64,000 nucleotides of DNA from a virus (lineage: Duplodnaviria; Heunggongvirae; Uroviricota; Caudoviricetes), in IMG/VR virus record IMGVR_UViG_3300046791_000283, positions 1-64,000 of that record; one strand, given 5' to 3'. The translations under genes were made by a program, and so were the position numbers. Position 1 is the first letter of the stretch. Each line of letters starts with the position of its first letter. Positions 3,675 through 34,363 of this stretch are shown in pieces. The notes beneath the pieces are model-generated. The model saw only the letters and a list, made by a program, of their open reading frames with translations, had not been told where the DNA came from and did no database searches.

Positions 3675-3677
3675 AGG

Positions 3678-9920: not shown

Positions 9921-10061
9921 GGGGATGTAGCTCAGTTGGTAGAGCGTAAGTTTGTGCCCGGTCCTGGTCAACCGGCTTTTGCTGATAGAACCAATTTTAC
10001 GTCAAGGTAAAATGAAGATGAGACAAACTTAAGGTCGGGGGTTCGAAGCCTTCCATCTCCA
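9921..10061 (+). tRNA. tRNA-like gene with a roughly 68-nt insertion in the anticodon loop; anticodon ambiguous
   Basis: Acceptor GGGGATG/CATCTCC; D arm GCTC-AGTTGGTA-GAGC; anticodon stem TAAGT...ACTTA separated by 75 nt; variable loop AGGTC; T arm GGGGG-TTCGAAG-CCTTC; discriminator A; insert folds into two hairpins (CCGGT..ACCGG and TTTTAC..GTAAAA). Confidence 0.6.
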
Positions 10062-14096: not shown

Positions 14097-15713
14097 ATGT
14101 CGAAGAAAATTACTTTTGATTCCGCTGCGCATGCAAAACTTAAAATCGGTGTGGATGCCTTGGCTGATGCGGTCAGTGTGACCCTTGGCCCCAAGGGGCG
14201 AAATGTTATCCTGTGTAAGGACTATGGAAGTCCAGCGATCACCAAGGATGGTGTGTCGGTCGCCCGTGAGGTCTTTCTGGAGGATCCGATGGAGAACGCT
14301 GGTGCCCAGCTGGTGAAGGAGGTTGCGAGTAAGACGGCTGAAGCCGCTGGAGATGGAACCACGACTGCAACCGTCCTGGCGCAAGCGATTTATGCGCATG
14401 GATTGAAGAACGTTGCTGCGGGTGCAAATCCAATGGACTTGAAACGTGGAATTGATAAAGCTGTTCTGTTGGTTACGGAGAGTCTAGCCAAGCAGTCTAA
14501 GAAAATAAAATCATCCGAACAGATCCGCCAGGTTGCAACGATCTCATCGAACAACGATGTGGAAATCGGAGGATTGATCGCGGAGGGAATGAAGAGAGTT
14601 GGTATGGATGGGGTGATCACCGTAGAAGACAGCAAGGGTATTGAATCCGAGATCACCGTGGTCGAGGGCATGCGATTTGATCGCGGATATCTTAGCCCGC
14701 ACTTCGTAACCAACACTGAGCGCATGGAGGTCGAAATGACCAACCCCTACGTACTTCTCACGGATAAAAAAATTGCATCGATGCGTGAGATGCTTCCGAT
14801 AATCCAACAAGTGGCGGACACTGGAAATCATCCGCTGTTATTCATTAGTCCCAATGTAGAGGGTGAGGCCCTCGCGACACTTGTTGTCAATAAGATGCGT
14901 GGTGCCCTGCATGTAGCGGCTGTGAAGACTCCGGGATTTGGTGATCGCGTAATGACCGATGCGCTTGAGGATCTCGCGGTGATCACAGGTGGCAAGGTAA
15001 TCAGTGAGATCATTGGATTGAAAATAGAAGAATGCAGACTCGAACACCTGGGTCGGGCAGAGAAAATCATCATCGATAATCAGACCACCACGATCGTCAA
15101 GGGTGCGGGCAAGTCAATCGATGTGAAGGAGCGGGTCGCCCAGGTGAAACACCAGATTGAAAACAGCGAGATTCCCTATGAGAAGGAGCGATTAAAGGAA
15201 CGTATTGCCAAGCTCACCGGTGGAGTGGCGATCTTGTATGTCGGTGCATCGACTGAAGTTGAGTTGAAGGAGAAGAAGGATAGGATTGATGATGCTTTGC
15301 ATGCAACACGGGCTGCAGTCCAGGAGGGCGTGGTACCTGGTGGTGGGGTCGCGTACATCCGCGCGATCGATTCATTGAAATCCGTTGCAGTGGATAATCA
15401 GGATCAGGAAACCGGTGTGAATATTATCCGCCTGGCTCTTGAGGCTCCATTGCGTGTAATCGCTAAAAACTCTGGGGCAGAGGCCTCGGTGGTTGTGGAT
15501 AAGGTACGGTCGCTGAAGAAAACTTTCGGCTACAATGCACGCGATGATAAGTACGAAGAATTCTTTGCGGCCGGCATCATCGATCCTACGAAGGTATCAC
15601 GACTTGCGTTGGAGAACGCGGCTTCGATCGCTGGACTCCTTCTGACTACCGATGTTATTATCAGTGAGATTCCAAAGGATAAACCCGAAGCCAATGGACC
15701 GGTTGCAAGATAA
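14097..15713 (+). CDS. groL: chaperonin GroEL (Cpn60)
   Basis: [39 protein letters not shown], and full 538-aa collinearity with GroEL. Confidence 0.9.
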
Positions 15714-17144: not shown

Positions 17145-17508
17145 GGAAAACTTCTGGAACGATCTCCAGACTAAACACCCAGAGACAATGAAAGTCTTCT
17201 GTGATTGGATCGATGGGTACAAAAAGCGAGTCAATTGGGATCAACTGTTCTCAGTTCACCCATGGAGCACCCGAACCGACAGACCTGCCACGAAGGATGA
17301 TTACGAAACCCATAAACGTGGTGAGATTAATCCGGGTCAATATAAGTACCATCATATCCCGATCGCGATGCAACTTGGGATATTCCTCCAATTTGTTTTT
17401 GAAGTGGAGGGAAGGGTGGGTGAGATGCTGATGGGGCTACAAGACTTCATCGGAGATCCGGCAGAGTTAATCCGTGAATGGTTCGCCACTACAAATATTG
17501 GAAAATGA
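17128..17508 (+). CDS. hypothetical protein
   Basis: 126-aa ORF. Confidence 0.5.
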   Translation: MESLTKENFWNDLQTKHPETMKVFCDWIDGYKKRVNWDQLFSVHPWSTRTDRPATKDDYETHKRGEINPGQYKYHHIPIAMQLGIFLQFVFEVEGRVGEMLMGLQDFIGDPAELIREWFATTNIGK

Positions 17509-19888: not shown

Positions 19889-20309
19889 CTTCGGTGACCG
19901 TGAACAAATTCAAGCCATCCATCAAACCGGCAGTATATTTCCACTTTTAGACTTCGATGATCAACCGGAATCACGCGGCCCTGAACACCAGGTCGTTTGC
20001 ATCCGTTGTCACAGACTCATCCGGATCCGAAAGCGCTGGACCCGGGAAAAATTCTGCATCGTAACACCAAGGATTCACACTTGTCGCTGTGATCAACGCC
20101 TACTCGTATTCCGTGCCGTTGTTACGGATTGGGATGAACCGGTTGAATACCAGCTTACCGATGGTGACGGGCATTACATCGTATCCGAACCCATTGGCCG
20201 GTGGCTTGGTGCCTACGAATCAATCGATGATCTGGACTTCCGTAACCCCGATGCGGATCCGTGGAGATTTTATAACCATCACTACCTCATTAAACCTTAC
20301 TCGAAATGA
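19782..20309 (+). CDS. hypothetical protein
   Basis: 175-aa ORF. Confidence 0.45.
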   Translation: MENNHQISQKPLSKLNASLKPYREVNRNNLLGRPLSFGDREQIQAIHQTGSIFPLLDFDDQPESRGPEHQVVCIRCHRLIRIRKRWTREKFCIVTPRIHTCRCDQRLLVFRAVVTDWDEPVEYQLTDGDGHYIVSEPIGRWLGAYESIDDLDFRNPDADPWRFYNHHYLIKPYSK

Positions 20310-21097
20310 ATAACAACGTTTGGGAAATACTACGTAAACGATATCCAGCCAACGAATACGCTCTTATGTCCGAAGTTCGGGATGCAGCAGGATTCGGTGC
20401 GTCCAGGTCAGCTGATTTCATCCTATTCAACCTTTGGCCATCCCGAGGCCTACACCTATCCGGAATTGAATTGAAGAGTTCACGCAGTGATTGGTTACGT
20501 GAATTGAAACACCCGAAGAAGGCTGAAGCCATTTTCACGTTCTGTGATTTCTTCTGGCTTCTGACAGAGGAGAAAGATGAGTTTGGTAAAGAAGATTCAA
20601 TAGCTAAGCTTGAAGAGATTCCAATCAACTGGGGTTGGATGGCTATAAAAAAAGGTAAGATTCATATTCGTAAGGAAGCTCCTAAGTTGGAGCCAAAACC
20701 GGTTGATCGTGATTTCCTTGGTGCTATGCTGAAGCGGGCCTGTGATAAAACCAATTTCGTACATATTGGATCCATCGAAGAGCGAGTAACCAATGCTAGG
20801 GAGGCCGGTAGAGAAGAAGCTAAAAACAGGCTGTTTAGTGCGGAGAAGGAACTTGAAAAGCTTAAGGAAGATGTCCAGGCTTTCTACAAAGCTTCTGGAA
20901 TCAATCTCCACAACTACTATCGTTGGCATACAGATCCAACGAAGATCGGAGCAGCGGTGAAAATGATTGAAGAAGGTGGTGCTGAAGCCATCCGTAAGCA
21001 GTTAATTAACTTACAAGGAACTGCAGAGAGTATATTGGCCAGTATAGCAAAACACATAACCACCCTTACGAATGACACCGGAACAAAGGATGCTTAA
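20306..21097 (+). CDS. PD-(D/E)xK-like nuclease-fold protein with C-terminal coiled coil
   Basis: SADFILFN...GIELK resembles the D...(D/E)xK core. Confidence 0.45.
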   Translation: MNNNVWEILRKRYPANEYALMSEVRDAAGFGASRSADFILFNLWPSRGLHLSGIELKSSRSDWLRELKHPKKAEAIFTFCDFFWLLTEEKDEFGKEDSIAKLEEIPINWGWMAIKKGKIHIRKEAPKLEPKPVDRDFLGAMLKRACDKTNFVHIGSIEERVTNAREAGREEAKNRLFSAEKELEKLKEDVQAFYKASGINLHNYYRWHTDPTKIGAAVKMIEEGGAEAIRKQLINLQGTAESILASIAKHITTLTNDTGTKDA

Positions 21098-21377
21098 TGT
21101 AGAGGAGATCATCCGTATGCAACGGAACCTGGTAGGTCTACAGTTTCACGTGGAACCGACCGATACAGGCTTTCAAGTGGTATTCGTTAAAATAGCCGCC
21201 TGGCAGCTTACGGAGCTGCGTAATAAGCTCTTTGAGTTTCGGATGAAACATATAGTGGCCATTGGCAAAGAAGTCGTGGAGGAGCCTAAACCCCACATAA
21301 TGAAGAAAAAACGCAAGAAGCGTAGAAGAGGTCACCGTCCAGGTGATAGTATCCGCATTCAAGGCCCACAGGGCTAA
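21072..21377 (+). CDS. hypothetical protein with poly-basic tail (KKKRKKRRRGHR)
   Basis: 101-aa ORF. Confidence 0.5.
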   Translation: MTPEQRMLNVEEIIRMQRNLVGLQFHVEPTDTGFQVVFVKIAAWQLTELRNKLFEFRMKHIVAIGKEVVEEPKPHIMKKKRKKRRRGHRPGDSIRIQGPQG

Positions 21378-21817
21378 AAAAATTTTTTCTAAAATTTTTC
21401 AGAATTTTTTAAAACCGACCGGGTGGACACTTCCAGCCAGAATCAGGAAATTTGGGGCCGGCGGGGGTCGCGGTTGGGAATCGAAAGCCGAAACCCCCAC
21501 CCGTGACCGCTACAATCCGCTTGGAATCGCTTTATCTCACAGCTGCACAGTAGGACGGGAAAGGCAAAAGCCCTAATGGACTCACGATTTGTACCACAAA
21601 TCCTTATAAGTGGCTAAATACACACTATACAGCGGTTTTGGAAGGGTATTATGGGGTTATCCTGCGTTTATATGTAAGTATCGTGGCAGGGATGAAGGCT
21701 GATTATTGCGGATTATCGGCAATTCACCCCAATCACACAGGCCAGCCTTAGGGGTATGATCATTCCTATTATGGGATAGTATTCCCAACTGTACCATTAT
21801 TGGAATGAAGTGCTGAT

Positions 21818-22021
21818 TTAAGACTTACGCTTACTCTGTTTAACAAAGTAAACCGAGTCAATGATAAACAGATCAATGTCTGTACTATTGGACTCTCCTA
21901 ATTCCTTTTCAATAAGCTGGTAAATGTATTGCCGACTTACTCCGGTCTTGCCGTCTCGCTTCCTATAGGACTTAGCGAGGTTCTCGGGCTTCATGTAATT
22001 ATCTTGTGACTTGACAACCAT
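21818..22021 (-). CDS. small HTH-like DNA-binding protein (regulator or excisionase-like) inside the non-coding hub
   Basis: 67 aa; GVSRQYIYQLIEKEL is helix-turn-helix-like; divergent to the rightward operon. Confidence 0.45.
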   Translation of the reverse strand: MVVKSQDNYMKPENLAKSYRKRDGKTGVSRQYIYQLIEKELGESNSTDIDLFIIDSVYFVKQSKRKS

Positions 22022-22065
22022 GCTGTAAATATAGCGATAATGACGAATTTTCTCGGAAGAATAAA

Positions 22066-22106
22066 AATATTTTACTTGACACTTGACAAGTAAGTTTATT
22101 TGTTTA
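22066..22106 (+). promoter_or_regulatory. Bacteroidota-type promoter for the ribozyme-punctuated operon, with TTGACA-n2-TGACAAGTAA motif and -7 TAGATTTG
   Basis: cTTGACACTTGACAAGTAAGTTTATTTGTTTAGATTTG; TTG to TAGATTTG spacing is 19 nt. Confidence 0.45.
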
Positions 22107-22433
22107 GATTTGTGTATCAGTTCAGCGCAACAATGCGCGACCGTTCTTTAAAGTACTGAATATCAATAGGATGCACAACAAGCCGTAAACTCGGTGCATT
22201 TCCGCAAATCTGCGTGATTCATTCCATGAATGCCCATCCAATATTTGAGACTGACTGAAACAGTATAACAGCAAGATAATCAATGACTTCGATGATGCAA
22301 CAGCGTTTAAATGGACGCAAAGGGCTTAGGTCGGTGGTTATCAGTAAATAGAAATTAGAACGATTAGGGCGTAAAAATCGTGCGGTTCCAAGGGCAGCCT
22401 TGGAACGTTCGTTTAAATCAAATCACAAACACT

Positions 22434-22671
22434 ATGGAAGCAATTAAAAGCAAATTGATCATTACACTGGTTGTTATGTTCATCGCAGTAACAGCGCATG
22501 CACAATCATTTTATCACAAGAAAATGAAACGAGTTAACCGGGATGCTGCTAATTATCAGTGTCAAGCGGTTCAACCGCGTGTTACGTTTGTTCAATCGGT
22601 TAATCACCGAATGAGTTATCAGACCAAACGTAAGCAGTACCGATTCAATACCAAGCTTAAGAGAAGAAATC

Positions 22672-22682
<11 letters not shown>
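22434..22682 (+). CDS. small secreted protein
   Basis: Signal peptide MEAIKSKLIITLVVMFIAVTAHA; stop codon TGA lies inside the CUGA core of hammerhead 1. Confidence 0.55.
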
Positions 22683-22831
<149 letters not shown>

Positions 22832-22839
22832 CTCAGGCA

Positions 22840-23169
22840 ATGGAAGCCAAGAAACCACTGTTCGGGCTCATCTCTTGCGATGGCTCGAATTACTCTGTTA
22901 GCTATGCTAAACAAGATGGATTCACACGAATGACTACAGACGGTTACGGTCTGGACGTATTCAACGGTATGCCGGATAACCTCAGGGTTATTGATTTAAG
23001 GCGGGCAGATTCTAAAAAGGTTGTTCGTCTCATTCTTGAGGTCTCAGGGATTGAAGAGCGTGACGCTTCAGGCATACCGTTAGAATCGTATATCAAGCGA
23101 ATGCGTGAGGCTGGCGCTATCATCCGTACTTTAAAGATGGTTCGCGACTGGGAAGAGGTCACAGGTTAA
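22840..23169 (+). CDS. hypothetical protein (ORFan)
   Basis: 109 aa; stop codon TAA is inside stem I of HH2. Confidence 0.65.
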   Translation: MEAKKPLFGLISCDGSNYSVSYAKQDGFTRMTTDGYGLDVFNGMPDNLRVIDLRRADSKKVVRLILEVSGIEERDASGIPLESYIKRMREAGAIIRTLKMVRDWEEVTG

Positions 23170-23217
23170 CTGAAGAGCTTTAAATAAGCGAAACGGGCAA
23201 TTAAGCCCGTCTTAACC
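23164..23217 (+). ncRNA. type I hammerhead ribozyme HH2
   Basis: GGTTAA-CUGAAGA-[GCTT-taaat-AAGC]-GAAA-[ACGGGC-aattaa-GCCCGT]-C | TTAACC; cleavage after 23211. Confidence 0.85.
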
Positions 23218-23230
23218 AAAACAATAATTT

Positions 23231-23740
23231 ATGGAAACCAAGGTATTGAGTTTTAAAACACGTTCGGAGTTATACGGTACAACTGACGCGGTAATCACGG
23301 ACATTGACCACGCTATAAAATCAGGCTTTTGTCCTTGTGGTTCTGGAGAGGATTACAAATTTTCATCTGAGGAGATTGAACAGCTTAAGCAAATCAAAAG
23401 CGGGTCATTGGAAGAGTTTACCCCTGAATTGAGAGTTCAAACGACTAAAGAACATTTTGAGACCTACAGGGATTTATTTGTGGCTAAGGGTTCGCCTCTA
23501 TCGCTTATCAGTGTGATTGAATCACGGATTGGTAAGGCTGCGATAGTTGAGGCCTTAACCAATGGAGCGGGTCACCTGAATGAAATACCGCTAAAGGTTT
23601 GGGATGGCCTTTGTCAGCACGTTGGTTGGACTGGTAAACAGGGTGATAAGTTTACTAAGTCAAACAGCCAACAGGTATGCCTATTGAAACACATTGCAAC
23701 CTATCAAATCGCAAAAGCAAAGCCAGTCTTTAAAGGTTAA
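23231..23740 (+). CDS. hypothetical protein (ORFan)
   Basis: 169 aa; ends inside HH3. Confidence 0.65.
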   Translation: METKVLSFKTRSELYGTTDAVITDIDHAIKSGFCPCGSGEDYKFSSEEIEQLKQIKSGSLEEFTPELRVQTTKEHFETYRDLFVAKGSPLSLISVIESRIGKAAIVEALTNGAGHLNEIPLKVWDGLCQHVGWTGKQGDKFTKSNSQQVCLLKHIATYQIAKAKPVFKG

Positions 23741-23790
23741 CTGAAGAGAATTTAATATTCGAAACCGTAACACGGGTTACGGTCTTAACC
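23735..23790 (+). ncRNA. type I hammerhead ribozyme HH3
   Basis: GGTTAA-CUGAAGA-[GAAT-ttaat-ATTC]-GAAA-[ACCGTAAC-acgg-GTTACGGT]-C | TTAACC; cleavage after 23784. Confidence 0.85.
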
Positions 23791-23799
23791 AATTACACT

Positions 23800-24516
23800 A
23801 TGGAAAAGCAAAAACTAACCCTTACAGCGGACAAGCTGAAAGAGATTTACACTAATGAGGAGTTTCGTAACGGTGTAGCGTATGCGCACCAATGCTGTGA
23901 CCAGCATGGGAATTTTAAACACTTCGAAACCTGTACGTATCCAGTCCGGTTTATTGTAACCGTTGAGCAAATCGAAGAGGCTAAGCGCGAGATCGAAACC
24001 GCTAAGGCTAAACTGTTAAAGTATATGATTTCCAACCCTTCTGTTTTTATGTTCGTGGGTATGGGCTGTAAGTATCCAGAGCGTTACGCGGATGATCTTT
24101 GTAACCATCGGATAAGGGCGGAATTTAAAAACGCTGTAGGTCACAAGTATTTTATTGAAGTGGGTACGGCTCAGGGGGATAAGATGCGGGTTGACCATTC
24201 AGTCGATCGGGATTTAGAGGAGCAAATGAATAACCGATTGATTGCATTGTTTGAGGAGCGTGACCGCGTTAAACAGTATTCTGCCGCGTGGCATAAGTGT
24301 TGTGAATTGATCAATGAGAATTTAAAACAGCCTTATTACAATTTTGCAGGGTTGGAACGTGGTATGTATGCAGAGTATACTAAAACCAAGTTGTTAAAAA
24401 TGATCAATGAGAAGTTCGGCTGTTTCTTCACTTCCATTGAAGTGGATAACCACACACTTACAACGGATGATTATTCCAACATTAGCCCAAAGAACAGGTT
24501 AACTGATGAGGCCTAA
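23800..24516 (+). CDS. hypothetical Cys-rich protein (ORFan)
   Basis: 238 aa; C-terminus RLTDEA is encoded by the HH4 core and stem II. Confidence 0.65.
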   Translation: MEKQKLTLTADKLKEIYTNEEFRNGVAYAHQCCDQHGNFKHFETCTYPVRFIVTVEQIEEAKREIETAKAKLLKYMISNPSVFMFVGMGCKYPERYADDLCNHRIRAEFKNAVGHKYFIEVGTAQGDKMRVDHSVDRDLEEQMNNRLIALFEERDRVKQYSAAWHKCCELINENLKQPYYNFAGLERGMYAEYTKTKLLKMINEKFGCFFTSIEVDNHTLTTDDYSNISPKNRLTDEA

Positions 24517-24557
24517 ATGGCCGAAACCCTCCGCTAGACGGGTGGAGGGTATTAACC
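24497..24557 (+). ncRNA. type I hammerhead ribozyme HH4
   Basis: GGTTAA-CUGAUGA-[GGCC-taaat-GGCC]-GAAA-[ACCCTCC-loop-GGAGGGT]-A | TTAACC; cleavage after 24551. Confidence 0.85.
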
Positions 24558-24570
24558 AAAACACAGCACT

Positions 24571-25239
24571 ATGGACAAAGGAAAATTATTAGTCCTGCGC
24601 AGACAACTGAAAGCAGGTAAGCACATTGTAACGGCTTGGAACCTAGCGGGCGAATGCCTTCTAACCTTGGACGCTGAGACTAATGGACAGGACGTTAAGG
24701 CTATGCGTACGGCTGGACTCGATCCAGAGCGCGAAGCCGATGTATTCCAATACGTCAACCATCTATTGAGGGATGAGTACAGCGCCTTTGAGTTGGCACA
24801 GGAAACAAAAACCGAAGGCGGCAAAACAATTGATTTAACCCCTACTTGGTCGGCTATGCTTCGGGTTCTGCTTACAGTCATACAGGACGGGAATGCAGAA
24901 GGGCGCAAATTAGCTATTGAGGAATTAACCAATATGGCGAAAGTAGCGGATCAATTCGTAGAGCTTTCAAAGCGAATGCCTAATGGCTTTGAATCTTGGA
25001 TGGAAACACACCACGAGGTGGTAACGGAAATTAACAAGGCCCTTCCAAGTGATTCGGTTCCAGAGAATTCAAATGTGGCTATACGTAGAGCAGAGGCACA
25101 AGGTACTGGCGGCATCTATGAATTAGCCGAAGAGCTTACCACTAAGTTTGAAACTCTGAATAAAGGCCGTGAGTGGGATGGTGAGTTCTACGAGGAGATT
25201 GAAAGCTTTTGTACAAAAGAGCTTTACAATGCAGATTAA
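24571..25239 (+). CDS. hypothetical acidic protein (ORFan)
   Basis: 222 aa; stop codon TAA is inside stem I of HH5. Confidence 0.65.
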   Translation: MDKGKLLVLRRQLKAGKHIVTAWNLAGECLLTLDAETNGQDVKAMRTAGLDPEREADVFQYVNHLLRDEYSAFELAQETKTEGGKTIDLTPTWSAMLRVLLTVIQDGNAEGRKLAIEELTNMAKVADQFVELSKRMPNGFESWMETHHEVVTEINKALPSDSVPENSNVAIRRAEAQGTGGIYELAEELTTKFETLNKGREWDGEFYEEIESFCTKELYNAD

Positions 25240-25291
25240 CTGATGAGGGCTTAATGCCCGAAACCTGAGAAGTTTTTCTCAGGTCTTAATC
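25234..25291 (+). ncRNA. type I hammerhead ribozyme HH5, with a compensatory stem I variant
   Basis: GATTAA-CUGAUGA-[GGGC-ttaat-GCCC]-GAAA-[ACCTGAGAA-gttt-TTCTCAGGT]-C | TTAATC; both strands of stem I changed together (GGTTAA/TTAACC became GATTAA/TTAATC); cleavage after 25285. Confidence 0.85.
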
Positions 25292-25298
25292 AAATCCT

Positions 25299-25559
25299 AT
25301 GGTACAGACAATTTTAAACACACTCGGTATTAGCAAGGCTAAAACTGAGGAATTAAGCGTTACAGCGTTTTTAGTTGCGAAAGCAAAGATTAACGCGGAG
25401 TACGCTGGTAAGAAAATCGACAGCATGACTCACGCGAGGCACATGCTATTCCTTGACAGGAAAATCAACGTGCGCACTATGGTAGTGGGTGCGGTTCGTA
25501 GTGGAGTGATCAAGCCCAGCCAGGCACGGGTCACTGAGGCCAATCTAACCTACTTTTAA
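25299..25559 (+). CDS. hypothetical protein (ORFan)
   Basis: 86 aa. Confidence 0.6.
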   Translation: MVQTILNTLGISKAKTEELSVTAFLVAKAKINAEYAGKKIDSMTHARHMLFLDRKINVRTMVVGAVRSGVIKPSQARVTEANLTYF

Positions 25560-25599
25560 ATCAAATTTATTAACCGGAGCCTTCCTAGCAATCTAATCA

Positions 25600-25659
25600 G
25601 GTTAACTGATGAGGCTTTCCTAGTAGCCGAAACCATCCCAGACGGGGGTGGTCTTAACC
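25600..25659 (+). ncRNA. type I hammerhead ribozyme HH6
   Basis: GGTTAA-CUGAUGA-[GGCT-ttcctagt-AGCC]-GAAA-[ACCATCCC-agacg-GGGGTGGT with one U-G pair]-C | TTAACC; cleavage after 25653. Confidence 0.8.
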
Positions 25660-25672
25660 AAATAGAACACTT

Positions 25673-26356
25673 ATGGACAATCTAATCAATTACAATTTTA
25701 AGCCGATAACCGAAAGGTTTTACGGCTTTGTTACCTATCCAGTAAAATACTCGGATGTAAAAGAACCTGAACAAGGTATTGAGCGCACCTCTGGTGTCGA
25801 TGCGGATTTTCATTCAATTTACTATCAGGCAACCGATGGCCGAGAAATGTGTATCGCTGACTTCGTACGCTGGAAAGATGCCAAGGCATTTGAAAAGCTT
25901 CTGGAATCAGTTATTCAGAATAACATCCCTAGACGCCTTGCATTTGAGAATACAGAACCTACTAAGGAAATTTTTGCTCAGAAGCTCAAAAACTTCATGC
26001 AAGCCGCTGAAGAACTGAGTATTATTTGGACAGAGTGCAATGATGATGAGGTCAACGATACCACATCCTTAGGATACCCGTTCCCATACAGCTTCGATGA
26101 TATGGAGGGAAGAATCCAAGACTGGGGCAATCATACCCTTGAACTATTCAACCGTAAGAAACGAATGATTGAAGTCAAGGCCGGGTTTAAAACACAGATT
26201 ATCTCATTGGAGGAATTCATTACGGATAATGCCAAGCGAACCGATCAATTAACCCTTGAGCAGGATGAGATCAGTGAGTTAATTGGTTTGGGCGTTGGCG
26301 ATAATACTACGATTGACATCGGAGGTATTGAATTTATTATCACACGGAGAACTTAA
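25673..26356 (+). CDS. hypothetical acidic protein (ORFan)
   Basis: 227 aa. Confidence 0.65.
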   Translation: MDNLINYNFKPITERFYGFVTYPVKYSDVKEPEQGIERTSGVDADFHSIYYQATDGREMCIADFVRWKDAKAFEKLLESVIQNNIPRRLAFENTEPTKEIFAQKLKNFMQAAEELSIIWTECNDDEVNDTTSLGYPFPYSFDDMEGRIQDWGNHTLELFNRKKRMIEVKAGFKTQIISLEEFITDNAKRTDQLTLEQDEISELIGLGVGDNTTIDIGGIEFIITRRT

Positions 26357-26362
26357 CTTATA

Positions 26363-26416
26363 GGTTAACTGACGAGAGTTTAATACTCGAAACCCATCTG
26401 CGGATGGGTATTAACC
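26363..26416 (+). ncRNA. type I hammerhead ribozyme HH7
   Basis: GGTTAA-CUGACGA-[GAGT-ttaat-ACTC]-GAAA-[ACCCATC-tgcg-GATGGGT]-A | TTAACC; cleavage after 26410. Confidence 0.85.
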
Positions 26417-26432
26417 AAAAACACTTAAAACT

Positions 26433-26657
26433 ATGGCACATGGAATTAAAAATGTGTTTAAGCTCCTCAATCACCACGGGAACCCTCGTGGGGCATTGCA
26501 TACGAGTTTAACACAATCGGAGGTTTCAAAGCTTTGGGCTGAAGCCAATGTGAATAAAATAAATCTCGATCCAAACGATTTCTTAAACGGTTGGGTTCGA
26601 CACAGTGATCCGGATGCGGAGTTTATCAGTATAACCGAAATCTACCCAATCCGATGA
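26433..26657 (+). CDS. hypothetical protein
   Basis: 74 aa; ATGA overlap with the next ORF. Confidence 0.55.
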   Translation: MAHGIKNVFKLLNHHGNPRGALHTSLTQSEVSKLWAEANVNKINLDPNDFLNGWVRHSDPDAEFISITEIYPIR

Positions 26658-27040
26658 ACCTCCTCTACCTCTACCCCATTGGGCTTGGTAGTCTGGTGGT
26701 CTTATTAACCGTAATCCTTATTAAGCGCTGGCGGGCTATGAATGAAACCTATACGAATGCGGTTGAACGCGAACGTAACGATACATTCTTTGAAGAGCCT
26801 GAAGTGTTTTTAAATCAGGGTTACGTGTTCTGCACACTCTTCAGCATACGCGACATTGAAGCGTGTGCTGTGGATATGGGATTATGTTTAACGCGATTAG
26901 AACAGATCAAAGTGGTCGCGTTGATCAAGCAGGAATTCAACCCACACAGGGGAATCAACTGCCAAACAATCAGAGAAGCAATTGTTAGACTTCAAACAAT
27001 TCATACCTATGAATCAGGATTCGAAGATTACGAAAATTAG
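26654..27040 (+). CDS. hypothetical membrane-anchored protein
   Basis: N-terminal TM segment LYLYPIGLGSLVVLLTVILI. Confidence 0.55.
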   Translation: MNLLYLYPIGLGSLVVLLTVILIKRWRAMNETYTNAVERERNDTFFEEPEVFLNQGYVFCTLFSIRDIEACAVDMGLCLTRLEQIKVVALIKQEFNPHRGINCQTIREAIVRLQTIHTYESGFEDYEN

Positions 27041-27242
27041 TGAACGCCAAACCGCTATACCGTGTCCGGATAACCAACACGACTATAGCCGAGGTTTAGA
27101 TCACACGCTACAGGTGCAACAGCTGAGGGACTGCTTAAAAGTTATTGGTACAGTCCGGCTGGGAAAACCACGATCCGGTATGACAAAAACCGAAGCCCCT
27201 CTGTTCGATCCACCGAAAGCAGAGCAAGGAAATTTATTTTAG
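26982..27242 (+). CDS. possible small ORF
   Basis: 86-aa ORF overlapping the previous gene; the terminator follows. Confidence 0.25.
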   Translation: MLDFKQFIPMNQDSKITKISERQTAIPCPDNQHDYSRGLDHTLQVQQLRDCLKVIGTVRLGKPRSGMTKTEAPLFDPPKAEQGNLF

Positions 27243-27260
27243 TGTTCCATAGGGTTAAAG

Positions 27261-27290
27261 CGTAGGAGAGAAACCTCCTGCGTTTTTTTA
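27261..27290 (+). terminator. rho-independent terminator inside the ribozyme operon
   Basis: cGtAGGAG-agaaac-CTCCTgCG followed by TTTTTTT. Confidence 0.6.
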
Positions 27291-27309
27291 TCCCATTAAT
27301 TCAAAACCT

Positions 27310-27531
27310 ATGCAAGTAATATTATTAAAACCAGAACAGTTAATCGCTATGCGACAAGCATCGTTGTTAAGCCACAAAATGGCCATTTGTATTAATGATG
27401 ATGGAAGCTTTCAAGGTATAGTCATTGAAGCATATATCAATAATGTAGTAAGAACCTTTTGGGTAGATGAAAACTTAGAACGCAATATCCGAGAGGCCTA
27501 TTCAAATCCACTTAAAACCAATTTCAAATGA
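27310..27531 (+). CDS. hypothetical protein
   Basis: 73 aa. Confidence 0.5.
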   Translation: MQVILLKPEQLIAMRQASLLSHKMAICINDDGSFQGIVIEAYINNVVRTFWVDENLERNIREAYSNPLKTNFK

Positions 27532-28004
27532 AGAAAATAACTGATTTTACTAAAGCAACCAGAGCGGACTTCGATGAAATCCGCAAGGCTATTATGGATG
27601 CACTCAAGCCGGTAGGCGATGCGAGTGGAATTGTGTTCAAATTCACAGGCAAGCTGAGCTATTCAGAGGGCTCCTTTGATGTGAAGATCACAGCCAGCGC
27701 AGTTCAATCCGATGGAACCGTATCAACGCCCGAGAGTGAAAGATTCAAACGCTATGCAACCATGTTTGGATTCAAACCAACCGATCTATTCACAACGTGT
27801 AAACTGAATGGTGAAGAATTCAAAATCATTGGTTTGAAACAATATCAGGGTAAACAGCCTGTGATATTACAGAAAATCAGCGATGGAAAAATCTATTCTG
27901 GAAGCACACAGGCCGTGAAGCACGCACTCGGAAGAGTCTCCGATATAGATTTTACTAAACCCTCTGGTGGAGGCAAAGCACTGAGAAGCCAAATGAAAGG
28001 TTAA
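27528..28004 (+). CDS. hypothetical protein
   Basis: 158 aa; stop codon TAA inside stem I of HH8. Confidence 0.6.
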   Translation: MKKITDFTKATRADFDEIRKAIMDALKPVGDASGIVFKFTGKLSYSEGSFDVKITASAVQSDGTVSTPESERFKRYATMFGFKPTDLFTTCKLNGEEFKIIGLKQYQGKQPVILQKISDGKIYSGSTQAVKHALGRVSDIDFTKPSGGGKALRSQMKG

Positions 28005-28050
28005 CTGAAGAGGATTGATTATCCGAAACCTCCACGAGGAGGTCTTAACC
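27999..28050 (+). ncRNA. type I hammerhead ribozyme HH8
   Basis: GGTTAA-CUGAAGA-[GGAT-tgatt-ATCC]-GAAA-[ACCTCC-acga-GGAGGT]-C | TTAACC; cleavage after 28044. Confidence 0.85.
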
Positions 28051-28066
28051 AAACGAATCGAAGGCT

Positions 28067-28270
28067 ATGGAATGTCATAAATGTAAAACCCAAACGATGA
28101 TCGGAGTAGAACTTCAGTTCGCTGATTATCCTAAATTCTACAATACCGAATGCACACAGTGTGGATTCAGTAATGGTATTGATTGGCCTGATTTCAATGC
28201 TCTGAGAGAATTGGGTGTTGAGAAAGTCCGTCTACTCGATGGATCGTTTTTGAATTTAATGGAAGATTAA
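28067..28270 (+). CDS. zinc-ribbon protein
   Basis: CHKC...CTQC. Confidence 0.5.
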   Translation: MECHKCKTQTMIGVELQFADYPKFYNTECTQCGFSNGIDWPDFNALRELGVEKVRLLDGSFLNLMED

Positions 28271-28272
28271 AG

Positions 28273-28596
28273 ATGATGGAAATACATCTACGTACACGAC
28301 AAACTAACAGAGCAGACGAAGTGATGATCCAGATAAAGGAATTTCTGGAAGCAGGGAAACCTGTGTTCGTTGCTATGCGAGATGAAGTTGACTTGACTCG
28401 GTTTAAGGATCGACTCAAGCGCTATGAAATTGAATGTGAAATAATGGAGTTCTGGGATCCAACTAAAGATGGATTATCTTCTCGTGGTCACATGGGTCAC
28501 GTGTACGATGAACTCACTGGAGAAACTTATTTAACACCACCTGAGCCGCCAAGGCTTAGAGGTATAACACTAAAACCGAAGTCTACAAACCCTTAA
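28273..28596 (+). CDS. hypothetical protein
   Basis: 107 aa. Confidence 0.55.
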   Translation: MMEIHLRTRQTNRADEVMIQIKEFLEAGKPVFVAMRDEVDLTRFKDRLKRYEIECEIMEFWDPTKDGLSSRGHMGHVYDELTGETYLTPPEPPRLRGITLKPKSTNP

Positions 28597-28605
28597 TAAT
28601 CCCCT

Positions 28606-30465
28606 ATGGCAAAGAAAAATAGTCACATTACCGTAACAGATCAATTCTGTGGCGCTGGAGGATCTTCGCAAGGAGTCCGTCTGGTAGCACGGGAGAAGAA
28701 ACTCAATACCGGCCTTGAAGTCAAGTTGGCTATGAACCATTGGCCGCTCGCCATTGAAACCCACAATACCAATTTTCCAGATACCGATCACGTGTGCACA
28801 GATATTTCAGCCTGTGATCCTCGGAGGTATCACAGTACAGATATTCTAATCACCTCACCCGAATGTACCGTGCACAGCCCAGCTGGTGGAGGACAGGCGA
28901 AAAAGAAAATGTATGGCAATCAACTCCATACCTCAGGGAAACTTATGTCCGAGATAGCCGAGGAGCGATCCCGTGCTACCATGTGGGATGTTTGCCGTTT
29001 CACTGAGTATCACCGTTACAATATTATTATCGTGGAAAACGTAGTCGAGGCCCGAACCAAATGGGTTCTATTCGACACCTGGTTAATGGCGATGACAAAC
29101 CTCGGCTATGACCACGAAATAAAATACATAAACAGCATGCACGCACATCCGACACCGCAATCACGCGACCGGATGTACTGCGTATTCTGGAAGAAAGGAA
29201 ACAAGAAACCAAATTTGAATCATACCCCTGTGGCTCCGTGCCACAAGTGTTTGAAAACCGTTGAGGCCTACCAGTGGTTTAAACCCCGTGGTAAGCGTAC
29301 CAACCTTCCAGAGAATCATGGGAAATACCGGACTCAGTATTTGTTTAAATGTCCGGACTGTAATTCCGTAGTGGAACCGTACTTCTATGCTGCCTTCAAT
29401 TGTATCGACTGGTCTAAGCCAGGCACACGGATTGGAGATCGTAAGAAACCGCTGAGCCCTAAAACCGAAGTCCGTTGTCAATACGGAGTCGATAAGTTTT
29501 GGGATGAGCCGAGCTTCATTAATGTGAAGTTCTCTTCAGGCGTGGACTTCCGGGTGAAGCCTGTAGCGGGAGAACCTCTGACTACACAGCCGGGAGATGC
29601 TGCAGTTGGGATATTGAATCCGATGATCATTTCATCCAGATACATTCAAGGAATAGGGAACCGCGTGAAGTCAAGTGAACAGGCCTTACCAGTGCAAGTG
29701 ACAGACGGGCGGGAGTCCGTCCTTACGCCTCCTCCGCTGATCATTGGTACGCAGTACAGCAAAGAAGCCAGAGGGGTTGAAAAGAGTTCGCTCGATCCAC
29801 TCAGGGTTCAAACAACGATCACTGACAACGCATTGGTTACACCTCCGCTAATCCTTGACGGTGGATGGAGTGAAGCCAAACCCCGTGTGGACGATGCCTC
29901 GAAGGAACCGATATCAGTACAGGACACTGGGCAGACCAAGGGTGTGGTGATGCCAATGCTGATTAAAAACTATAGTGGGAAGCACAATCCAATCGCTCCA
30001 TCGGAGCAACCTATGGCTTCTGTTACCGCTCAGGATCACCACGGACTTTTGAACGTGCCATTGGTAGTGAATAACCATGGCCAGAGTATGTCAAAGCCAT
30101 CAGCGAATGAGTTGCCATCGCAGACAACGCATCCGAAGTCCGGTATACTTACGGCTGAAAGTTTCAATAGCTTTATATCGTATTTCTACGGTGGATCGAA
30201 TGTAGCCAGCCATATAACCGAAGCCATGCGCACAGTGAGTACAAAGGAGCGGGCCATGCTAATCAATCAGCCGTACGTGAAACCAAGGCTTGAGGATTGT
30301 TTCTATCGGATGCTACTGCCAAATGAGATTCAACTCGGGATGGCCTTCGATGCGGATTACGTAGTCCTGGGGGACTCGAAGCAAAAGGTTAAGCAGTTGG
30401 GTAACGCGGTTACACCTCCGGTAATGAAGTTTTTAGTAGAACGTTGTGTCGAATCACTTTTATAA
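28606..30465 (+). CDS. DNA (cytosine-5)-methyltransferase with large target-recognition insert
   Basis: Motif I FCGAGGSSQG, PC-like TSPECT, ENV (IIVENVVEA), motif X GNAVTPPV. Confidence 0.85.
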   Translation: MAKKNSHITVTDQFCGAGGSSQGVRLVAREKKLNTGLEVKLAMNHWPLAIETHNTNFPDTDHVCTDISACDPRRYHSTDILITSPECTVHSPAGGGQAKKKMYGNQLHTSGKLMSEIAEERSRATMWDVCRFTEYHRYNIIIVENVVEARTKWVLFDTWLMAMTNLGYDHEIKYINSMHAHPTPQSRDRMYCVFWKKGNKKPNLNHTPVAPCHKCLKTVEAYQWFKPRGKRTNLPENHGKYRTQYLFKCPDCNSVVEPYFYAAFNCIDWSKPGTRIGDRKKPLSPKTEVRCQYGVDKFWDEPSFINVKFSSGVDFRVKPVAGEPLTTQPGDAAVGILNPMIISSRYIQGIGNRVKSSEQALPVQVTDGRESVLTPPPLIIGTQYSKEARGVEKSSLDPLRVQTTITDNALVTPPLILDGGWSEAKPRVDDASKEPISVQDTGQTKGVVMPMLIKNYSGKHNPIAPSEQPMASVTAQDHHGLLNVPLVVNNHGQSMSKPSANELPSQTTHPKSGILTAESFNSFISYFYGGSNVASHITEAMRTVSTKERAMLINQPYVKPRLEDCFYRMLLPNEIQLGMAFDADYVVLGDSKQKVKQLGNAVTPPVMKFLVERCVESLL

Positions 30466-30860
30466 CTATGGAAAATCTAACTAAAGAACAGGCGATCGAA
30501 GCCATGAAGCAGGGTAAGCGAGTTACCCATAGATACTTTGATGATGTCGAATTTATCGCTATGAACTCAAAGGGGATGATAGTATTTGAAGACGGTGTTA
30601 TATCTGTAGACCCTGAGGAGTTTTGGAAATGGAGAACCAGTCATTTATTTGATAACGGCTGGACTATTCTGCCAAACCCTGAGAGTAAACCAAAAATATT
30701 AACCATCTCAGGAACCGCAGAAGATTTTGAGGCCCTGAAAGATGCTGTCGTATTCTCTATGAATTGGGATGATGATCATCCGGAATACCGGAATGATCCT
30801 GAGAAGCGATTGAAGGTATGGCATGGTAAAATCGTTGAACGCTTAACCCTTAACAAATGA
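30444..30860 (+). CDS. hypothetical protein
   Basis: 138 aa. Confidence 0.55.
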   Translation: MCRITFITMENLTKEQAIEAMKQGKRVTHRYFDDVEFIAMNSKGMIVFEDGVISVDPEEFWKWRTSHLFDNGWTILPNPESKPKILTISGTAEDFEALKDAVVFSMNWDDDHPEYRNDPEKRLKVWHGKIVERLTLNK

Positions 30861-31471
30861 AAATACTCGTATGTGGAATGGGGCGCTGTGGCACCTCGTT
30901 GATGATGAAAATGCTATACAGGGCCGGTATACCCGTGTACTGTGATCCCGATAGCCTTGGCACTGGATATGAATCAGAAAATATTCAATCGTTGCCAAAG
31001 AACACCGCCTGGTGGGATGAGGTCGAGGGTAAGGCGATAAAGCTTCTTGATATCCATCGGTGGACCCCGCCAGCACCACAGATGCCAGAGGAGAAGTACG
31101 TGATCATTTGGATGCACCGTAATCTAACCGAACAAGCAAAATCACAGATCAAACTGGCTAGTTTCTTCCTACAGCAGCATTGCGATTGGTCAAGACCAAA
31201 CGTGCGTGCATGGAAACGTAAGCTGGAAACTCAGACGCGTGTATCGGAGGAGATAATCAGTCGGTTCAGTCAATCGATATTGGCAGTTCCTTTTGAAGCA
31301 CTCATTGAATATCCAGAGGCCACTTGTTTAGATGTTGCCTTTTACTTGAAGGAAACCGGTGTGATTCCCGAAGGAATGGTTCAGGAATCAGCGAAGAAAA
31401 TGTACTCAGCTGTTTTGAAGAGAAGCTCAAAGTGTTTGCACGAATTACTTGAACTAAACCAAATCCGATGA
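30857..31471 (+). CDS. P-loop sulfotransferase-like protein
   Basis: N-terminal ILVCGMGRCGTSLM resembles the sulfotransferase 5'-PSB loop; RNLTEQAKS resembles the 3'-PB motif. Confidence 0.4.
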   Translation: MKILVCGMGRCGTSLMMKMLYRAGIPVYCDPDSLGTGYESENIQSLPKNTAWWDEVEGKAIKLLDIHRWTPPAPQMPEEKYVIIWMHRNLTEQAKSQIKLASFFLQQHCDWSRPNVRAWKRKLETQTRVSEEIISRFSQSILAVPFEALIEYPEATCLDVAFYLKETGVIPEGMVQESAKKMYSAVLKRSSKCLHELLELNQIR

Positions 31472-31848
31472 GAGCCCTTGTAATCGATGAGGCCGCTAAG
31501 GCCAAAGTAGCCACGATGGTTGAGTACGCTGAGCAACATCCATTCAGTATGGATGATCTTCTAGACATTCACAACAAACAATTGGATCCCGCTGGATATC
31601 GGCCAGGTCATTGCGTCCACCTGGATCACGGATTCCGAATTGTGTACTGCATAGAAAACCAAGTTGTTGGACGTATTCGCCATCTCAGCGTTTGCGTTGA
31701 TGCGGATCACGCTCTACCGAATCCAGCGATGGTAAAGGTGATCATGGAACTCATTGGATTCAAAAACGAATTAGAACGATGTGAAGTAAAGATGGAGGAT
31801 ACGAGTCCGGTACGCAAGGCAGTTAACATACTTGAAATCATTAAGTAA
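31468..31848 (+). CDS. hypothetical protein
   Basis: 126 aa. Confidence 0.5.
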   Translation: MRALVIDEAAKAKVATMVEYAEQHPFSMDDLLDIHNKQLDPAGYRPGHCVHLDHGFRIVYCIENQVVGRIRHLSVCVDADHALPNPAMVKVIMELIGFKNELERCEVKMEDTSPVRKAVNILEIIK

Positions 31849-32212
31849 TATGGACTGGGTAAGACTTTCAGAAATAGAGATAGAACTTTTTCGGGAGGCC
31901 CGTAAGTATTGGCCTGTGCTATCAGCCGAAGAAATACACTGTATTGATTTTCCTAACCACACTACTGAATTCATTGAGTTTGTTAATTCTCAGATCCGGA
32001 AACGTCCAAAGTTTGATAAAAATAAATTATCTGTTAAGGCTGTTGGCCAATTCGACTGGGTATTTGAATACGATGGTATTGGAAGATCACCATTGTTATC
32101 AAGACCATTAGTAGCTGAGTCGAAGAGAAAGAAGCTAACCAGAGTACAAGCTCTGATATTTATAATCAAGGAATCCGAATACATTGAATTTGAAACCATA
32201 GGCCATGAGTAG
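31832..32212 (+). CDS. hypothetical protein
   Basis: 126 aa. Confidence 0.5.
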   Translation: MKSLSNMDWVRLSEIEIELFREARKYWPVLSAEEIHCIDFPNHTTEFIEFVNSQIRKRPKFDKNKLSVKAVGQFDWVFEYDGIGRSPLLSRPLVAESKRKKLTRVQALIFIIKESEYIEFETIGHE

Positions 32213-32350: not shown

Positions 32351-34363
32351 ATGACATTTCAACTCAATAGATTCATAGTATCCGATGTGTTCGATCCAAC
32401 GACCGGACTGGAAAGTATTCCCGATGGAATAGCGGACTGCATCGTAACCAGCCCACCCTATTGGGGTAAGCGTGACTACCGAACCGGAATCTGGTTGAAC
32501 GGTGATCCAAAGTGTGATCACATGCCATCCTCGACTCCAAATGAACGCGGGCTGGCCTCCTCCACACTCAGTGGAGGAAAGAAGTCAACGGGTCACCGCC
32601 AGGAGGGCTTCAAAGGCAGTTGTCCCCGCTGCGGAGCCATCCGGATTGATAAACAACTCGGACTCGAAAAGACTCCAGAGGAATTCATTCAGCGGATGGT
32701 TATCGTATTCCGAGAATGCAAACGAATTCTAAAACCACATGGAACCCTGTGGATCAATATCGGTGATACCTACTGGTCGGGTAAGGGTAAGTCTGGAGCC
32801 GCATGGGATAAGTATAATAATTCTGGTCACATAAATTACAAAGGACAATCGTACGCGGGCTATGGTGAGACCAGACCACAGGACGGTAAGCATCCGATTA
32901 TAAAACCGAAGGATCTCGTAGGAATTCCTTGGAAATTAGCCGAAGCCCTCAGGGCACCATTCTATACTGGTAGAATAACAAATGAACTCGATAGAGTTTG
33001 GATGGCGGCAATGATTGATGGAGAGGGTTGTTTTTTTATTCATAAACGGAAAGCAGGAACCTCATCATATTCAAAATTTAAAAAAGTTGATGGGACTGAG
33101 AATACTTATTTGCGTACAAAAGACACGTATAGTGCAGGGCTAGAAATAACCAATACAGATGAAGCAATCATAAGGCGTATAAAAGATGTTACAGGTTTAG
33201 GCACCATCACAATCCAAACCCCATCACAAAATACTAGACGTGTACAAACCCTATACAGATGGCGTGTTTCTCCAAATGAAGCAAAAAGAATTGCTCAAGA
33301 AACTTATCCTTATCTTATAGGTAAACAACATCAAGCAAGACTTATATTTAATTGCCAGTCAAGTGGTGACTTAGCCTCGCAAGCCCATCAAGCAATTTTA
33401 GATTTACATAATGGAATTAATCCAAAAATTGATTTTCCAGCACCACCTTCTCTATTTGAACCAGGTTGGTATTTAAGGTCTGAGATTATATGGGCAAAAC
33501 GCAATCCGATGCCGGAAAGTGCACAGGATCGCTGCACAAGTTCACATGAACATATTTTCATGCTGTCTAAATCAAAGTCCTATTACTTCGATCGCGTTGC
33601 CATAGCCGAGGAGGTCAAGGACTCCACAGTGAAGCGAACCGCTCAGGATGTAGAGAATCAGAAGGGAAGCGATCGGGCCTACGAAGGCAAGCGACACAAT
33701 GGGCCGATGAAAGCCGTGGTGTCAAAGCACATGAACGTACCGAAGGGATGGGATACTGGTTCAGGTAGTCACGGGAATTTTCACTCCGAAGGAAGGCGTA
33801 AGGATTATGATCATCGCGGAGGTGGAAAGGATAACAAGTTAAGTAAGCATAATGGTAATCTGGACGAGGATGGTAATCTGATCGGAGACGGTATTGCTAA
33901 TAAGCGCGATGTCTGGTCGATGAGTACTCAACCCTATAAGGGCGATCACTTTGCCACATTCCCAGAGGAACTTCCAAGGAATTGTATTCTGGCCGGTACA
34001 TCGGCTAAAGGAAATTGTCCGCACTGTGGTAAGCCTTGGGTACGAATCAGTAAAAAAGAGTTTGTTACCCGCGATGCTACTGAAAGAGAACCAGAGAGAG
34101 ATGATTTAATAAAGCACGGATTACCCAGAGGAGAAAATATTGTGCGGACTATCGGCTGGAAGCCATCGTGTAAATGCAATAAACCCGGAGAACTCACACG
34201 GCCAGTTGTATTCGATCCCTTTGGAGGCACTGGCACAACACCCGTTGTAGCCGATCAACTCGGTAGGGACTGGTTGGCCATGGAGCTTTCGCAGGATTCG
34301 ACCAATCAGGCACACCGGAAATTAAGAAACAAATTAGGTCCACTGTTAACTCAAAACTTATAA
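32351..34363 (+). CDS. beta-class DNA methyltransferase (N6-adenine or N4-cytosine) carrying an in-frame LAGLIDADG-like insertion
   Basis: Motif IV TSPPY near the N-terminus and motif I FDPFGGTGTT near the C-terminus; EIIWAKRNPMPES and HEHIFMLSKS are typical of beta-class MTases. Confidence 0.8.
   Translation: MTFQLNRFIVSDVFDPTTGLESIPDGIADCIVTSPPYWGKRDYRTGIWLNGDPKCDHMPSSTPNERGLASSTLSGGKKSTGHRQEGFKGSCPRCGAIRIDKQLGLEKTPEEFIQRMVIVFRECKRILKPHGTLWINIGDTYWSGKGKSGAAWDKYNNSGHINYKGQSYAGYGETRPQDGKHPIIKPKDLVGIPWKLAEALRAPFYTGRITNELDRVWMAAMIDGEGCFFIHKRKAGTSSYSKFKKVDGTENTYLRTKDTYSAGLEITNTDEAIIRRIKDVTGLGTITIQTPSQNTRRVQTLYRWRVSPNEAKRIAQETYPYLIGKQHQARLIFNCQSSGDLASQAHQAILDLHNGINPKIDFPAPPSLFEPGWYLRSEIIWAKRNPMPESAQDRCTSSHEHIFMLSKSKSYYFDRVAIAEEVKDSTVKRTAQDVENQKGSDRAYEGKRHNGPMKAVVSKHMNVPKGWDTGSGSHGNFHSEGRRKDYDHRGGGKDNKLSKHNGNLDEDGNLIGDGIANKRDVWSMSTQPYKGDHFATFPEELPRNCILAGTSAKGNCPHCGKPWVRISKKEFVTRDATEREPERDDLIKHGLPRGENIVRTIGWKPSCKCNKPGELTRPVVFDPFGGTGTTPVVADQLGRDWLAMELSQDSTNQAHRKLRNKLGPLLTQNL
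32990..33480 (+). other. LAGLIDADG-like domain inserted in-frame in the methyltransferase; AT-rich patch
   Basis: WMAAMIDGEGCFFIH resembles LAGLIDADG; segment sits between the conserved GIPWKLAEALRA and GWYLRSEIIW blocks; local AT content clearly above flanks. Confidence 0.5.

Follow-up and report, generated by a model that had tools for sequence, protein, structure and literature searches.

The stretch of viral DNA analysed here (the window, 64,000 nucleotides) carries phage genes for a portal protein, a large terminase, GroEL, a DnaB-type helicase, an integrase and several DNA methyltransferases. The terminase is nearest, at about 25% identity, only to those of Flavobacterium, Cellulophaga and Maribacter phages, and the host is therefore probably a member of the Bacteroidota. 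The GroEL-type chaperonin is encoded at 14097-15713, a C5 cytosine methyltransferase at 28606-30465 and a methyltransferase-HNH fusion at 32351-34363, while an ORF of 2185 aa occupies 48756-55313. GroEL is also encoded by distant relatives among Cellulophaga and Flavobacterium phages. A megablast search of positions 20000-32000 against deposited phages returned no match.

A tRNA-like gene lies on the plus strand at 9921-10061, at a divergent strand-switch just upstream of the ORF at 10085-11719. It scored 51.2 bits against the Rfam tRNA model and carries a 71-nt insertion in the anticodon loop; ARAGORN detected no tRNA in the whole window. The insertion matched no Rfam family, and its fold was no more stable than those of shuffled controls (z = -1.2). 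A group I intron was considered for the insertion and rejected, as 71 nt is too short.

Eight consecutive short intergenic gaps between 22673 and 28050 (5.4 kb) are filled by hammerhead elements, HH1 to HH8, all on the plus strand, which is the coding strand. HH1 (22673-22727) has stem I GGUUAA/UUAACC and a predicted cut after A 22721 in a GUA triplet (77.2 bits). HH2 (23164-23217; 74.3 bits) is predicted to be cut after 23211 (GUC), and the stop codon TAA of the upstream gene falls in its stem I 5' strand. HH3 (23735-23790; 74.9 bits) is of type I with a predicted cut after 23784, and HH4 (24497-24557; 72.0 bits), with a predicted cut after 24551 (GUA), holds the TAA stop of the upstream ORF in loop II. 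HH5 (25234-25291; 71.2 bits), the element under study, is described below. The remaining three, all of type I, are HH6 (25600-25659; 67.4 bits), which has a loop II of 8 nt and a predicted cut after 25653, HH7 (26363-26416; 74.7 bits), with a predicted cut after 26410 (GUA), and HH8 (27999-28050; 68.1 bits), with a predicted cut after 28044. A covariance model built from the eight recovered exactly these elements in the window at 67-77 bits, with the next match at 11 bits; this search revealed no degenerate extra copies in the 64 kb.

The array sits within a long co-directional plus-strand block, and the small ORFs that flank it are of unknown function. Neighbouring genes that have no ribozyme between them overlap or abut. 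In all eight cases a start codon follows 13-22 nt past the predicted cut, via an A-rich, almost G-free leader. A Shine-Dalgarno-like sequence is absent from seven of the eight leaders; that of HH8 contains GAAGG. The stop codon of the upstream gene lies inside the ribozyme in six of eight cases, as the TAA of stem I in four, the core TGA in one and the loop II TAA in one. Just upstream of the array, at 21577-22380, about 800 nt are without a plus-strand ORF of at least 40 aa, which makes this segment a candidate promoter or regulatory region for the array transcript. It includes a sigma-70-like match at 22083-22110; such matches are no commoner than chance. Promoter-like and terminator-like sites in 20000-31000 did not exceed the shuffled expectation, the promoter scan being for sigma-70-type sites, which may not suit a Bacteroidota host. 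The first ORF after HH1 (22742-22831, plus strand) encodes a hydrophobic peptide of 29 aa and is followed by a 109-aa ORF at 22840-23169. At its other end, the array is adjoined by the C5 cytosine methyltransferase gene.

All eight elements carry the core C3-U4-G5-A6-N7-G8-A9 and G12-A13-A14, which reads CTGA[T/C/A]GA...GAAA, and only N7 varies. The A15.1-U16.1 and C15.2-G16.2 pairs are each present in eight of eight, and stem II is closed by G10.1-C11.1 throughout. The cleavage triplet is GUC in five elements and GUA in three; nucleotide 17 is never G. Both the 5' and the 3' end lie in the open stem I, and loops cap stems II and III, as in the type I topology; the three-way junction is the minimum free energy (MFE) structure of every element. 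Genuine type I hammerheads on the coding strand are thus very probable, and a polycistronic RNA is predicted to cut itself at each of them.

HH5 is a complete type I hammerhead that occupies exactly 25234-25291 (58 nt). Its sequence runs GATTAA, CTGATGA, GGGCTTAATGCCC (GGGC-TTAAT-GCCC), GAAA, CCTGAGAAGTTTTTCTCAG, GTC and TTAATC. The stem I 5' strand GAUUAA (25234-25239) is followed by the core CUGAUGA (25240-25246), stem-loop II (25247-25259), GAAA (25260-25263) and stem III (25263-25284); C17 is at 25285, and the stem I 3' strand UUAAUC (25286-25291) completes the element. The MFE is -20.6 kcal/mol (z = -4.2), and the score of 71.2 bits was obtained with the covariance model of the eight.

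HH5 lies between two plus-strand ORFs. The upstream ORF (24571-25239, 222 aa) matches phrog_34395 and phrog_22670, both of unknown function, and its last sense codon GAT (25234-25236) and stop TAA (25237-25239) are the 5' strand of HH5 stem I. The downstream ORF (25299-25559, 86 aa) has its ATG 13 nt past the predicted cleavage site, the intervening leader being UUAAUCAAAUCCU.

Parsing of all elements in the window confirmed the earlier reading that stem I is GGTTAA paired with TTAACC in seven ribozymes, and re-inspection of HH5 bore out that GATTAA and TTAATC restore full pairing. Stem I of HH5 differs from that of its seven sisters at two positions only, 25235 (G>A) and 25290 (C>U). The two are base-pairing partners and form the fifth stem-I pair counted from the core. 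The initial annotation was right about the partnership and placed the changes 50 nt apart; the actual distance is 55 nt. In the structural alignment of the eight elements (A3), the fifth pair is GC in seven copies and AU in one, and the remaining five stem-I pairs are invariant. Since the 5' strand is also the end of the 222-aa ORF, the change at 25235 additionally converts the C-terminal Gly to Asp; the Gly codon is GGT in sister elements with the same frame. The compensating change at 25290 falls in the non-coding leader of the next gene.

A chance estimate was made by our own arithmetic. With 96 stem-I cells across the eight copies and two substitutions placed at random, the probability that the second falls on the partner cell of the same copy with a complementary base is about 1/95 x 1/3 = 0.004, or at most about 0.01 when transition bias is allowed for. 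Taken alone, the HH5 double change is suggestive, being one event with little statistical power, and a covariation test on stem I of the eight copies alone would miss significance.

For alignment A3, the eight elements were padded to bring their stems into register. Paired cells amounted to 98.5%, compared with 76.5% after shuffling, and sliding the 3' partners by 1-3 columns reduced pairing to 21-46%. Changes on both sides were found at 9 of 17 pairs, and none of 500 shuffles reached the observed covariation score. Compensated pairs numbered three of four in stem II, five of seven in stem III and one of six in stem I, the last being the HH5 pair. Within the window, the covariation of stem I comes down to one pair in one copy. 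Stem I is identical in seven of the eight copies, and stems II and III are different in every copy. Common descent alone would be expected to give similar divergence of all three stems; the window departs from this in its near-constant stem I.

The question of stem-I pairing is settled by the wider family and not by the HH5 event alone. A pattern scan of IMG/VR with only the three inner stem-I pairs fixed found at least 120 loci. A Python descriptor requiring only the four inner stem-I pairs, with pairs 5 and 6 left free, yielded 165 distinct hammerheads among the matches listed. The fifth pair was formed in all 165 of these distinct relatives, compared with 40% after shuffling, which supports the original proposal that stem I forms and is under selection. 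Its identity among the 165 was CG in 49, GC in 42, UA in 34, AU in 25 and GU in 15; the sixth pair was nearly always G-C among the relatives listed. Stem I stops at exactly 6 bp, since a conserved A faces another A at position 7. In a model-based alignment of 140 distinct rows (A4), double changes were seen at six of six stem-I pairs with 100% of stem-I cells paired, and over the whole structure at 12 of 14 pairs with 99.7% of cells paired. Core sequence, fold and covariation in each of the three stems are what the data show, in the window and in hundreds of relatives.

The HH5 type of stem I recurs in this family. GAUUAA/UUAAUC is the third commonest stem I in viral-contig relatives, at 13 of 175 among the matches listed. 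The G.U intermediate GGUUAA/UUAAUC stands next to A-U copies in five arrays (L011, L141, L157, L171 and L198). In a further array (L230), six GGUUAA/UUAACC copies are accompanied by one compensated GGUUUA/UAAACC copy, parallel to HH5. With G-C, G.U and A-U states all present in related arrays, the family offers a natural example of selection on hammerhead stem-I pairing.

The stability of stem I was assessed by ViennaRNA. For HH5, the stem-I pair probability was about 0.01 with A.C, about 0.35 with G.U, about 0.6 with A-U and about 0.95 with G-C at the fifth pair. As a duplex, the 6-bp stem I is worth about -2 to -4 kcal/mol. The switch from G-C to A-U in HH5 probably went via the G.U intermediate, with C>U first and G>A second. 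Stem I is a marginal 6-bp helix, probably firm enough to start the fold yet weak enough for the products to separate. Since it would have to pair for the ribozyme to fold, a change in one strand would be tolerated only with the matching change in the other.

HH5 could instead have arrived ready-made with its gene cassette from a lineage that carries GAUUAA/UUAAUC, and the difference from its sisters would then reflect lineage and not local compensation. This is possible, though we think it somewhat unlikely. The stem I of HH5 is common elsewhere, as the count above indicates, and GAUUAA/UUAAUC dominates whole arrays (L011, L141, L157 and L171). The hammerhead-flanked genes of the window have almost no homologues in other hammerhead-bearing contigs, IMG/VR or JGI metagenomes, which fits mosaic cargo. 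In tblastn searches of the block ORFs against all hammerhead loci retrieved, two weak partial matches were obtained, and the 222-aa protein gave no relatives in IMG/VR or JGI metagenomes and no exact-sequence record. The flanks, core and loop II of HH5 match those of its seven neighbours, as local origin would predict, but these features are common family-wide and hence do not discriminate. On the other side, no element elsewhere has stems II or III of HH5, so that no donor can be named. Import, if it were the true history, would leave selection on stem I in place, but the window would then hold no trace of a compensation event.

The most likely role of the array is to let a polycistronic transcript cut itself into mRNAs the size of single genes. 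The spacing and strand of the genes, the grounds for assuming co-transcription, suggest that the small-gene block would be transcribed as one long RNA. Each ribozyme would then fold and cut itself after C17 or A17, giving eight sites. The upstream fragment would retain its stop codon and terminate in the compactly folded stems II and III, bearing a 2',3'-cyclic phosphate. The downstream fragment would open with UUAACC (UUAAUC in HH5), which would bear a 5'-hydroxyl, and continue through a single-stranded leader of 13-22 nt to the start codon. Such processing may in turn affect mRNA stability or translation.

Two more specific roles were considered, and together they appear unlikely. The hammerheads may serve to give each processed mRNA one short unstructured 5'-hydroxyl leader (UUAACCAAA...), or the shared stem I may allow mRNA ligation or circularisation. 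Were the leader role true, cleavage would free the leader from stem I and turn on downstream translation in a host without Shine-Dalgarno pairing. Either role, if true, would explain why stem I is constant in seven of eight copies when stems II and III are all different, and also why HH5 changed on both strands.

Ligation considered by itself, whether hammerhead-catalysed or by a host RtcB-type ligase, could circularise the mRNAs or join non-adjacent fragments; we regard it as improbable. With one stem I in seven of eight copies, each excised mRNA would carry 5'-UUAACC at its start and GGUUAA plus the core near its end, and stem I is homogeneous in arrays elsewhere too (L001, L097, L230 and L260). 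The type I topology also keeps the whole catalytic fold on the cyclic-phosphate fragment, a property noted for trans ligation (PMC3088659). Nevertheless, many arrays have a different stem I in each copy (L013 and L079), copies within a locus resemble each other more in stems II and III too, as common descent predicts, no RtcB-like gene was present among the window ORFs scanned, and Perreault et al. sought spliced or circular products and saw none (PMC3088659). Cellulophaga phage phi38:1 encodes RtcB, but its first 50 kb contain no hammerhead of this subfamily.

A special within-array homogeneity of stem I was examined separately and rejected: within-locus sharing of stem I was 35%, compared with 10% between loci, and stems II and III were raised similarly or more. 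A three-frame stop design was also discarded. The TAA of stem I and the TGA of the core close two frames in all eight elements, but only five of the eight also close the third within their own length, and the stop is often missing from relatives whose stem I is different.

A DNA-level repeat without RNA catalysis (protein-binding inverted repeats, cassette recombination boundaries or miniature mobile elements) would account for eight copies with conserved termini (AGGTTAAC...TTAACCAA) that bound variable cargo genes, but is highly improbable given that the conserved unpaired bases are the hammerhead catalytic core, one-for-one, that the helices conserve pairing and not sequence, that sense-strand G.U pairs (GU in 12-20 cases) are meaningful only in RNA, that every copy is on the coding strand, and that GTTAAC outside the elements is neither avoided nor enriched (16 sites against 14.6 expected). 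The view of the initial annotation that these are hammerheads and not a mere repeated DNA motif was upheld by the match of conserved unpaired bases to the catalytic core and by compensation at 8 of the 11 pairs in stems II and III. The G>A change in HH5 does remove a GTTAAC; escape from a restriction site was nevertheless rejected as its cause, as GTTAAC is not avoided in the window (the same 16 against 14.6).

The window array belongs to the clustered phage and prophage hammerheads known since 2011 (PMC3088659). Perreault et al. described several hammerheads that flank single genes or short variable gene blocks in prophages; three such arrangements cleave in vitro and one in vivo, and processing of a long phage transcript was proposed (PMC3088659). 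A 2019 review considered the purpose of such ribozymes not yet defined (PMC6765202). Like the clusters of Clostridium scindens, Azorhizobium caulinodans and Agrobacterium tumefaciens ardA (PMC3088659), the window elements are on the sense strand, close-set, between variable genes and canonical in their core. The window array differs in having eight copies in 5.4 kb, all of type I and of one narrow subfamily, which is marked by 6 bp in stem I with unpaired A on either side, 4 bp in stem II and a loop of 5 nt with the consensus U-N-A-(A/U)-U. It also differs in residing in a phage whose terminase is nearest to those of Flavobacteriia phages, and in that no multi-bp pseudoknot is evident.

At gathering thresholds, Rfam found no hammerhead in the window. 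RF00163 (Hammerhead_1) shares the open stem I topology, the core and the cleavage site, and HH2 aligns to it end to end. Nevertheless, the best score, that of HH2, was 21.4 bits against a gathering threshold of 34, and the other seven elements were unlisted at E<=10. The sub-threshold score reflects the seed of the model and not a missing structural feature. The best Rfam family for HH4 (27.1 bits) and HH6 (22.3 bits) is RF03152 (RAGATH-1 hammerhead), which likewise combines a GUC site with a short stem I whose UAA end precedes CUGAUGAG. These scores are far under the gathering threshold of 56.3. The RF03152 model has one stem II pair, whereas the window elements have 4 bp, and its extra upstream hairpin aligns weakly to the window elements. 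Rfam-based annotation misses the array because its scores are below the curated thresholds, and such annotation thereby passes over a type I hammerhead subfamily that is very common in environmental phages.

Two known systems bear on the position of the elements upstream of start codons. The viral hammerhead HHphage of haloviruses HF1 and HF2 precedes a start codon by 13 nt, as HH5 does, and a transcript 5' end was mapped within three nucleotides of its cleavage site (PMC3088659). HHphage differs from the window elements in its atypical core, which contains insertions, in its requirement for high salt and in being a single copy from an archaeal virus. Type I hammerheads in the 5' UTRs of fungal and plant RNA viruses also lie directly upstream of viral ORFs, and their self-cleavage is reported to be necessary for translation initiation (bioRxiv 10.1101/2024.05.16.594327). 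They offer an analogy for cleavage that frees a leader. Those systems are eukaryotic and cap-independent with RNA genomes, unlike the window array, and for the latter a link to translation would be a functional analogy only.

The subfamily is abundant: IMG/VR and the metagenome collection each gave at least 120 loci. A further 55 stretches came from assembled genomes of bacteria and archaea, among them Legionella, Sphingobacteriia and Lachnospiraceae. Arrays on other contigs reach eight copies, as in L141 (JAAGZR010000219.1, binned as an Aliivibrio MAG), where positions 541-4520 hold eight hammerheads in 4 kb of a 5.8-kb contig. Their 3' strand is always UUAAUC and their 5' strand either GAUUAA (A-U) or GGUUAA (G.U); L157, L171 and L127 behave likewise. 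The L141 contig seems to be phage sequence that was placed in a bacterial MAG.

In the family as a whole, the loop II consensus is U-N-A-(A/U)-U and stem I is bracketed by unpaired A residues. Nucleotide 5 of loop II covaries with the first nucleotide 3' of stem I, the combinations U:A, A:U and G:A accounting for 151, 22 and 15 of 195 distinct elements, respectively. The A:U class comes from 12 loci, and none of 5000 shuffles reached the observed complementarity. The corresponding positions in HH5 are U 25255 and A 25292. A U at the first nucleotide 3' of stem I has a second possible partner, the conserved A on the 5' side of that stem. Judged by this covariation, and geometry aside, the two nucleotides possibly form the tertiary contact of the subfamily.

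The cultured Flavobacterium phage vB_FspP_elemoA_7-9A (NC_055852.1) also carries a hammerhead of this subfamily, on the minus strand at 17286-17349 (50.4 bits). Its stem I is GGCAAA/UUUGUC with one G.U pair, loop II is UUAAU and the site is GUC. The element lies between two minus-strand genes, with the ATG of gp69 22 nt past stem I. KNV10_gp68, a hypothetical protein of 35 aa, is annotated over the hammerhead on the opposite strand; this annotation is probably spurious. With a family member in a cultured phage, the role of intergenic self-cleavage becomes testable in a tractable phage-host pair.
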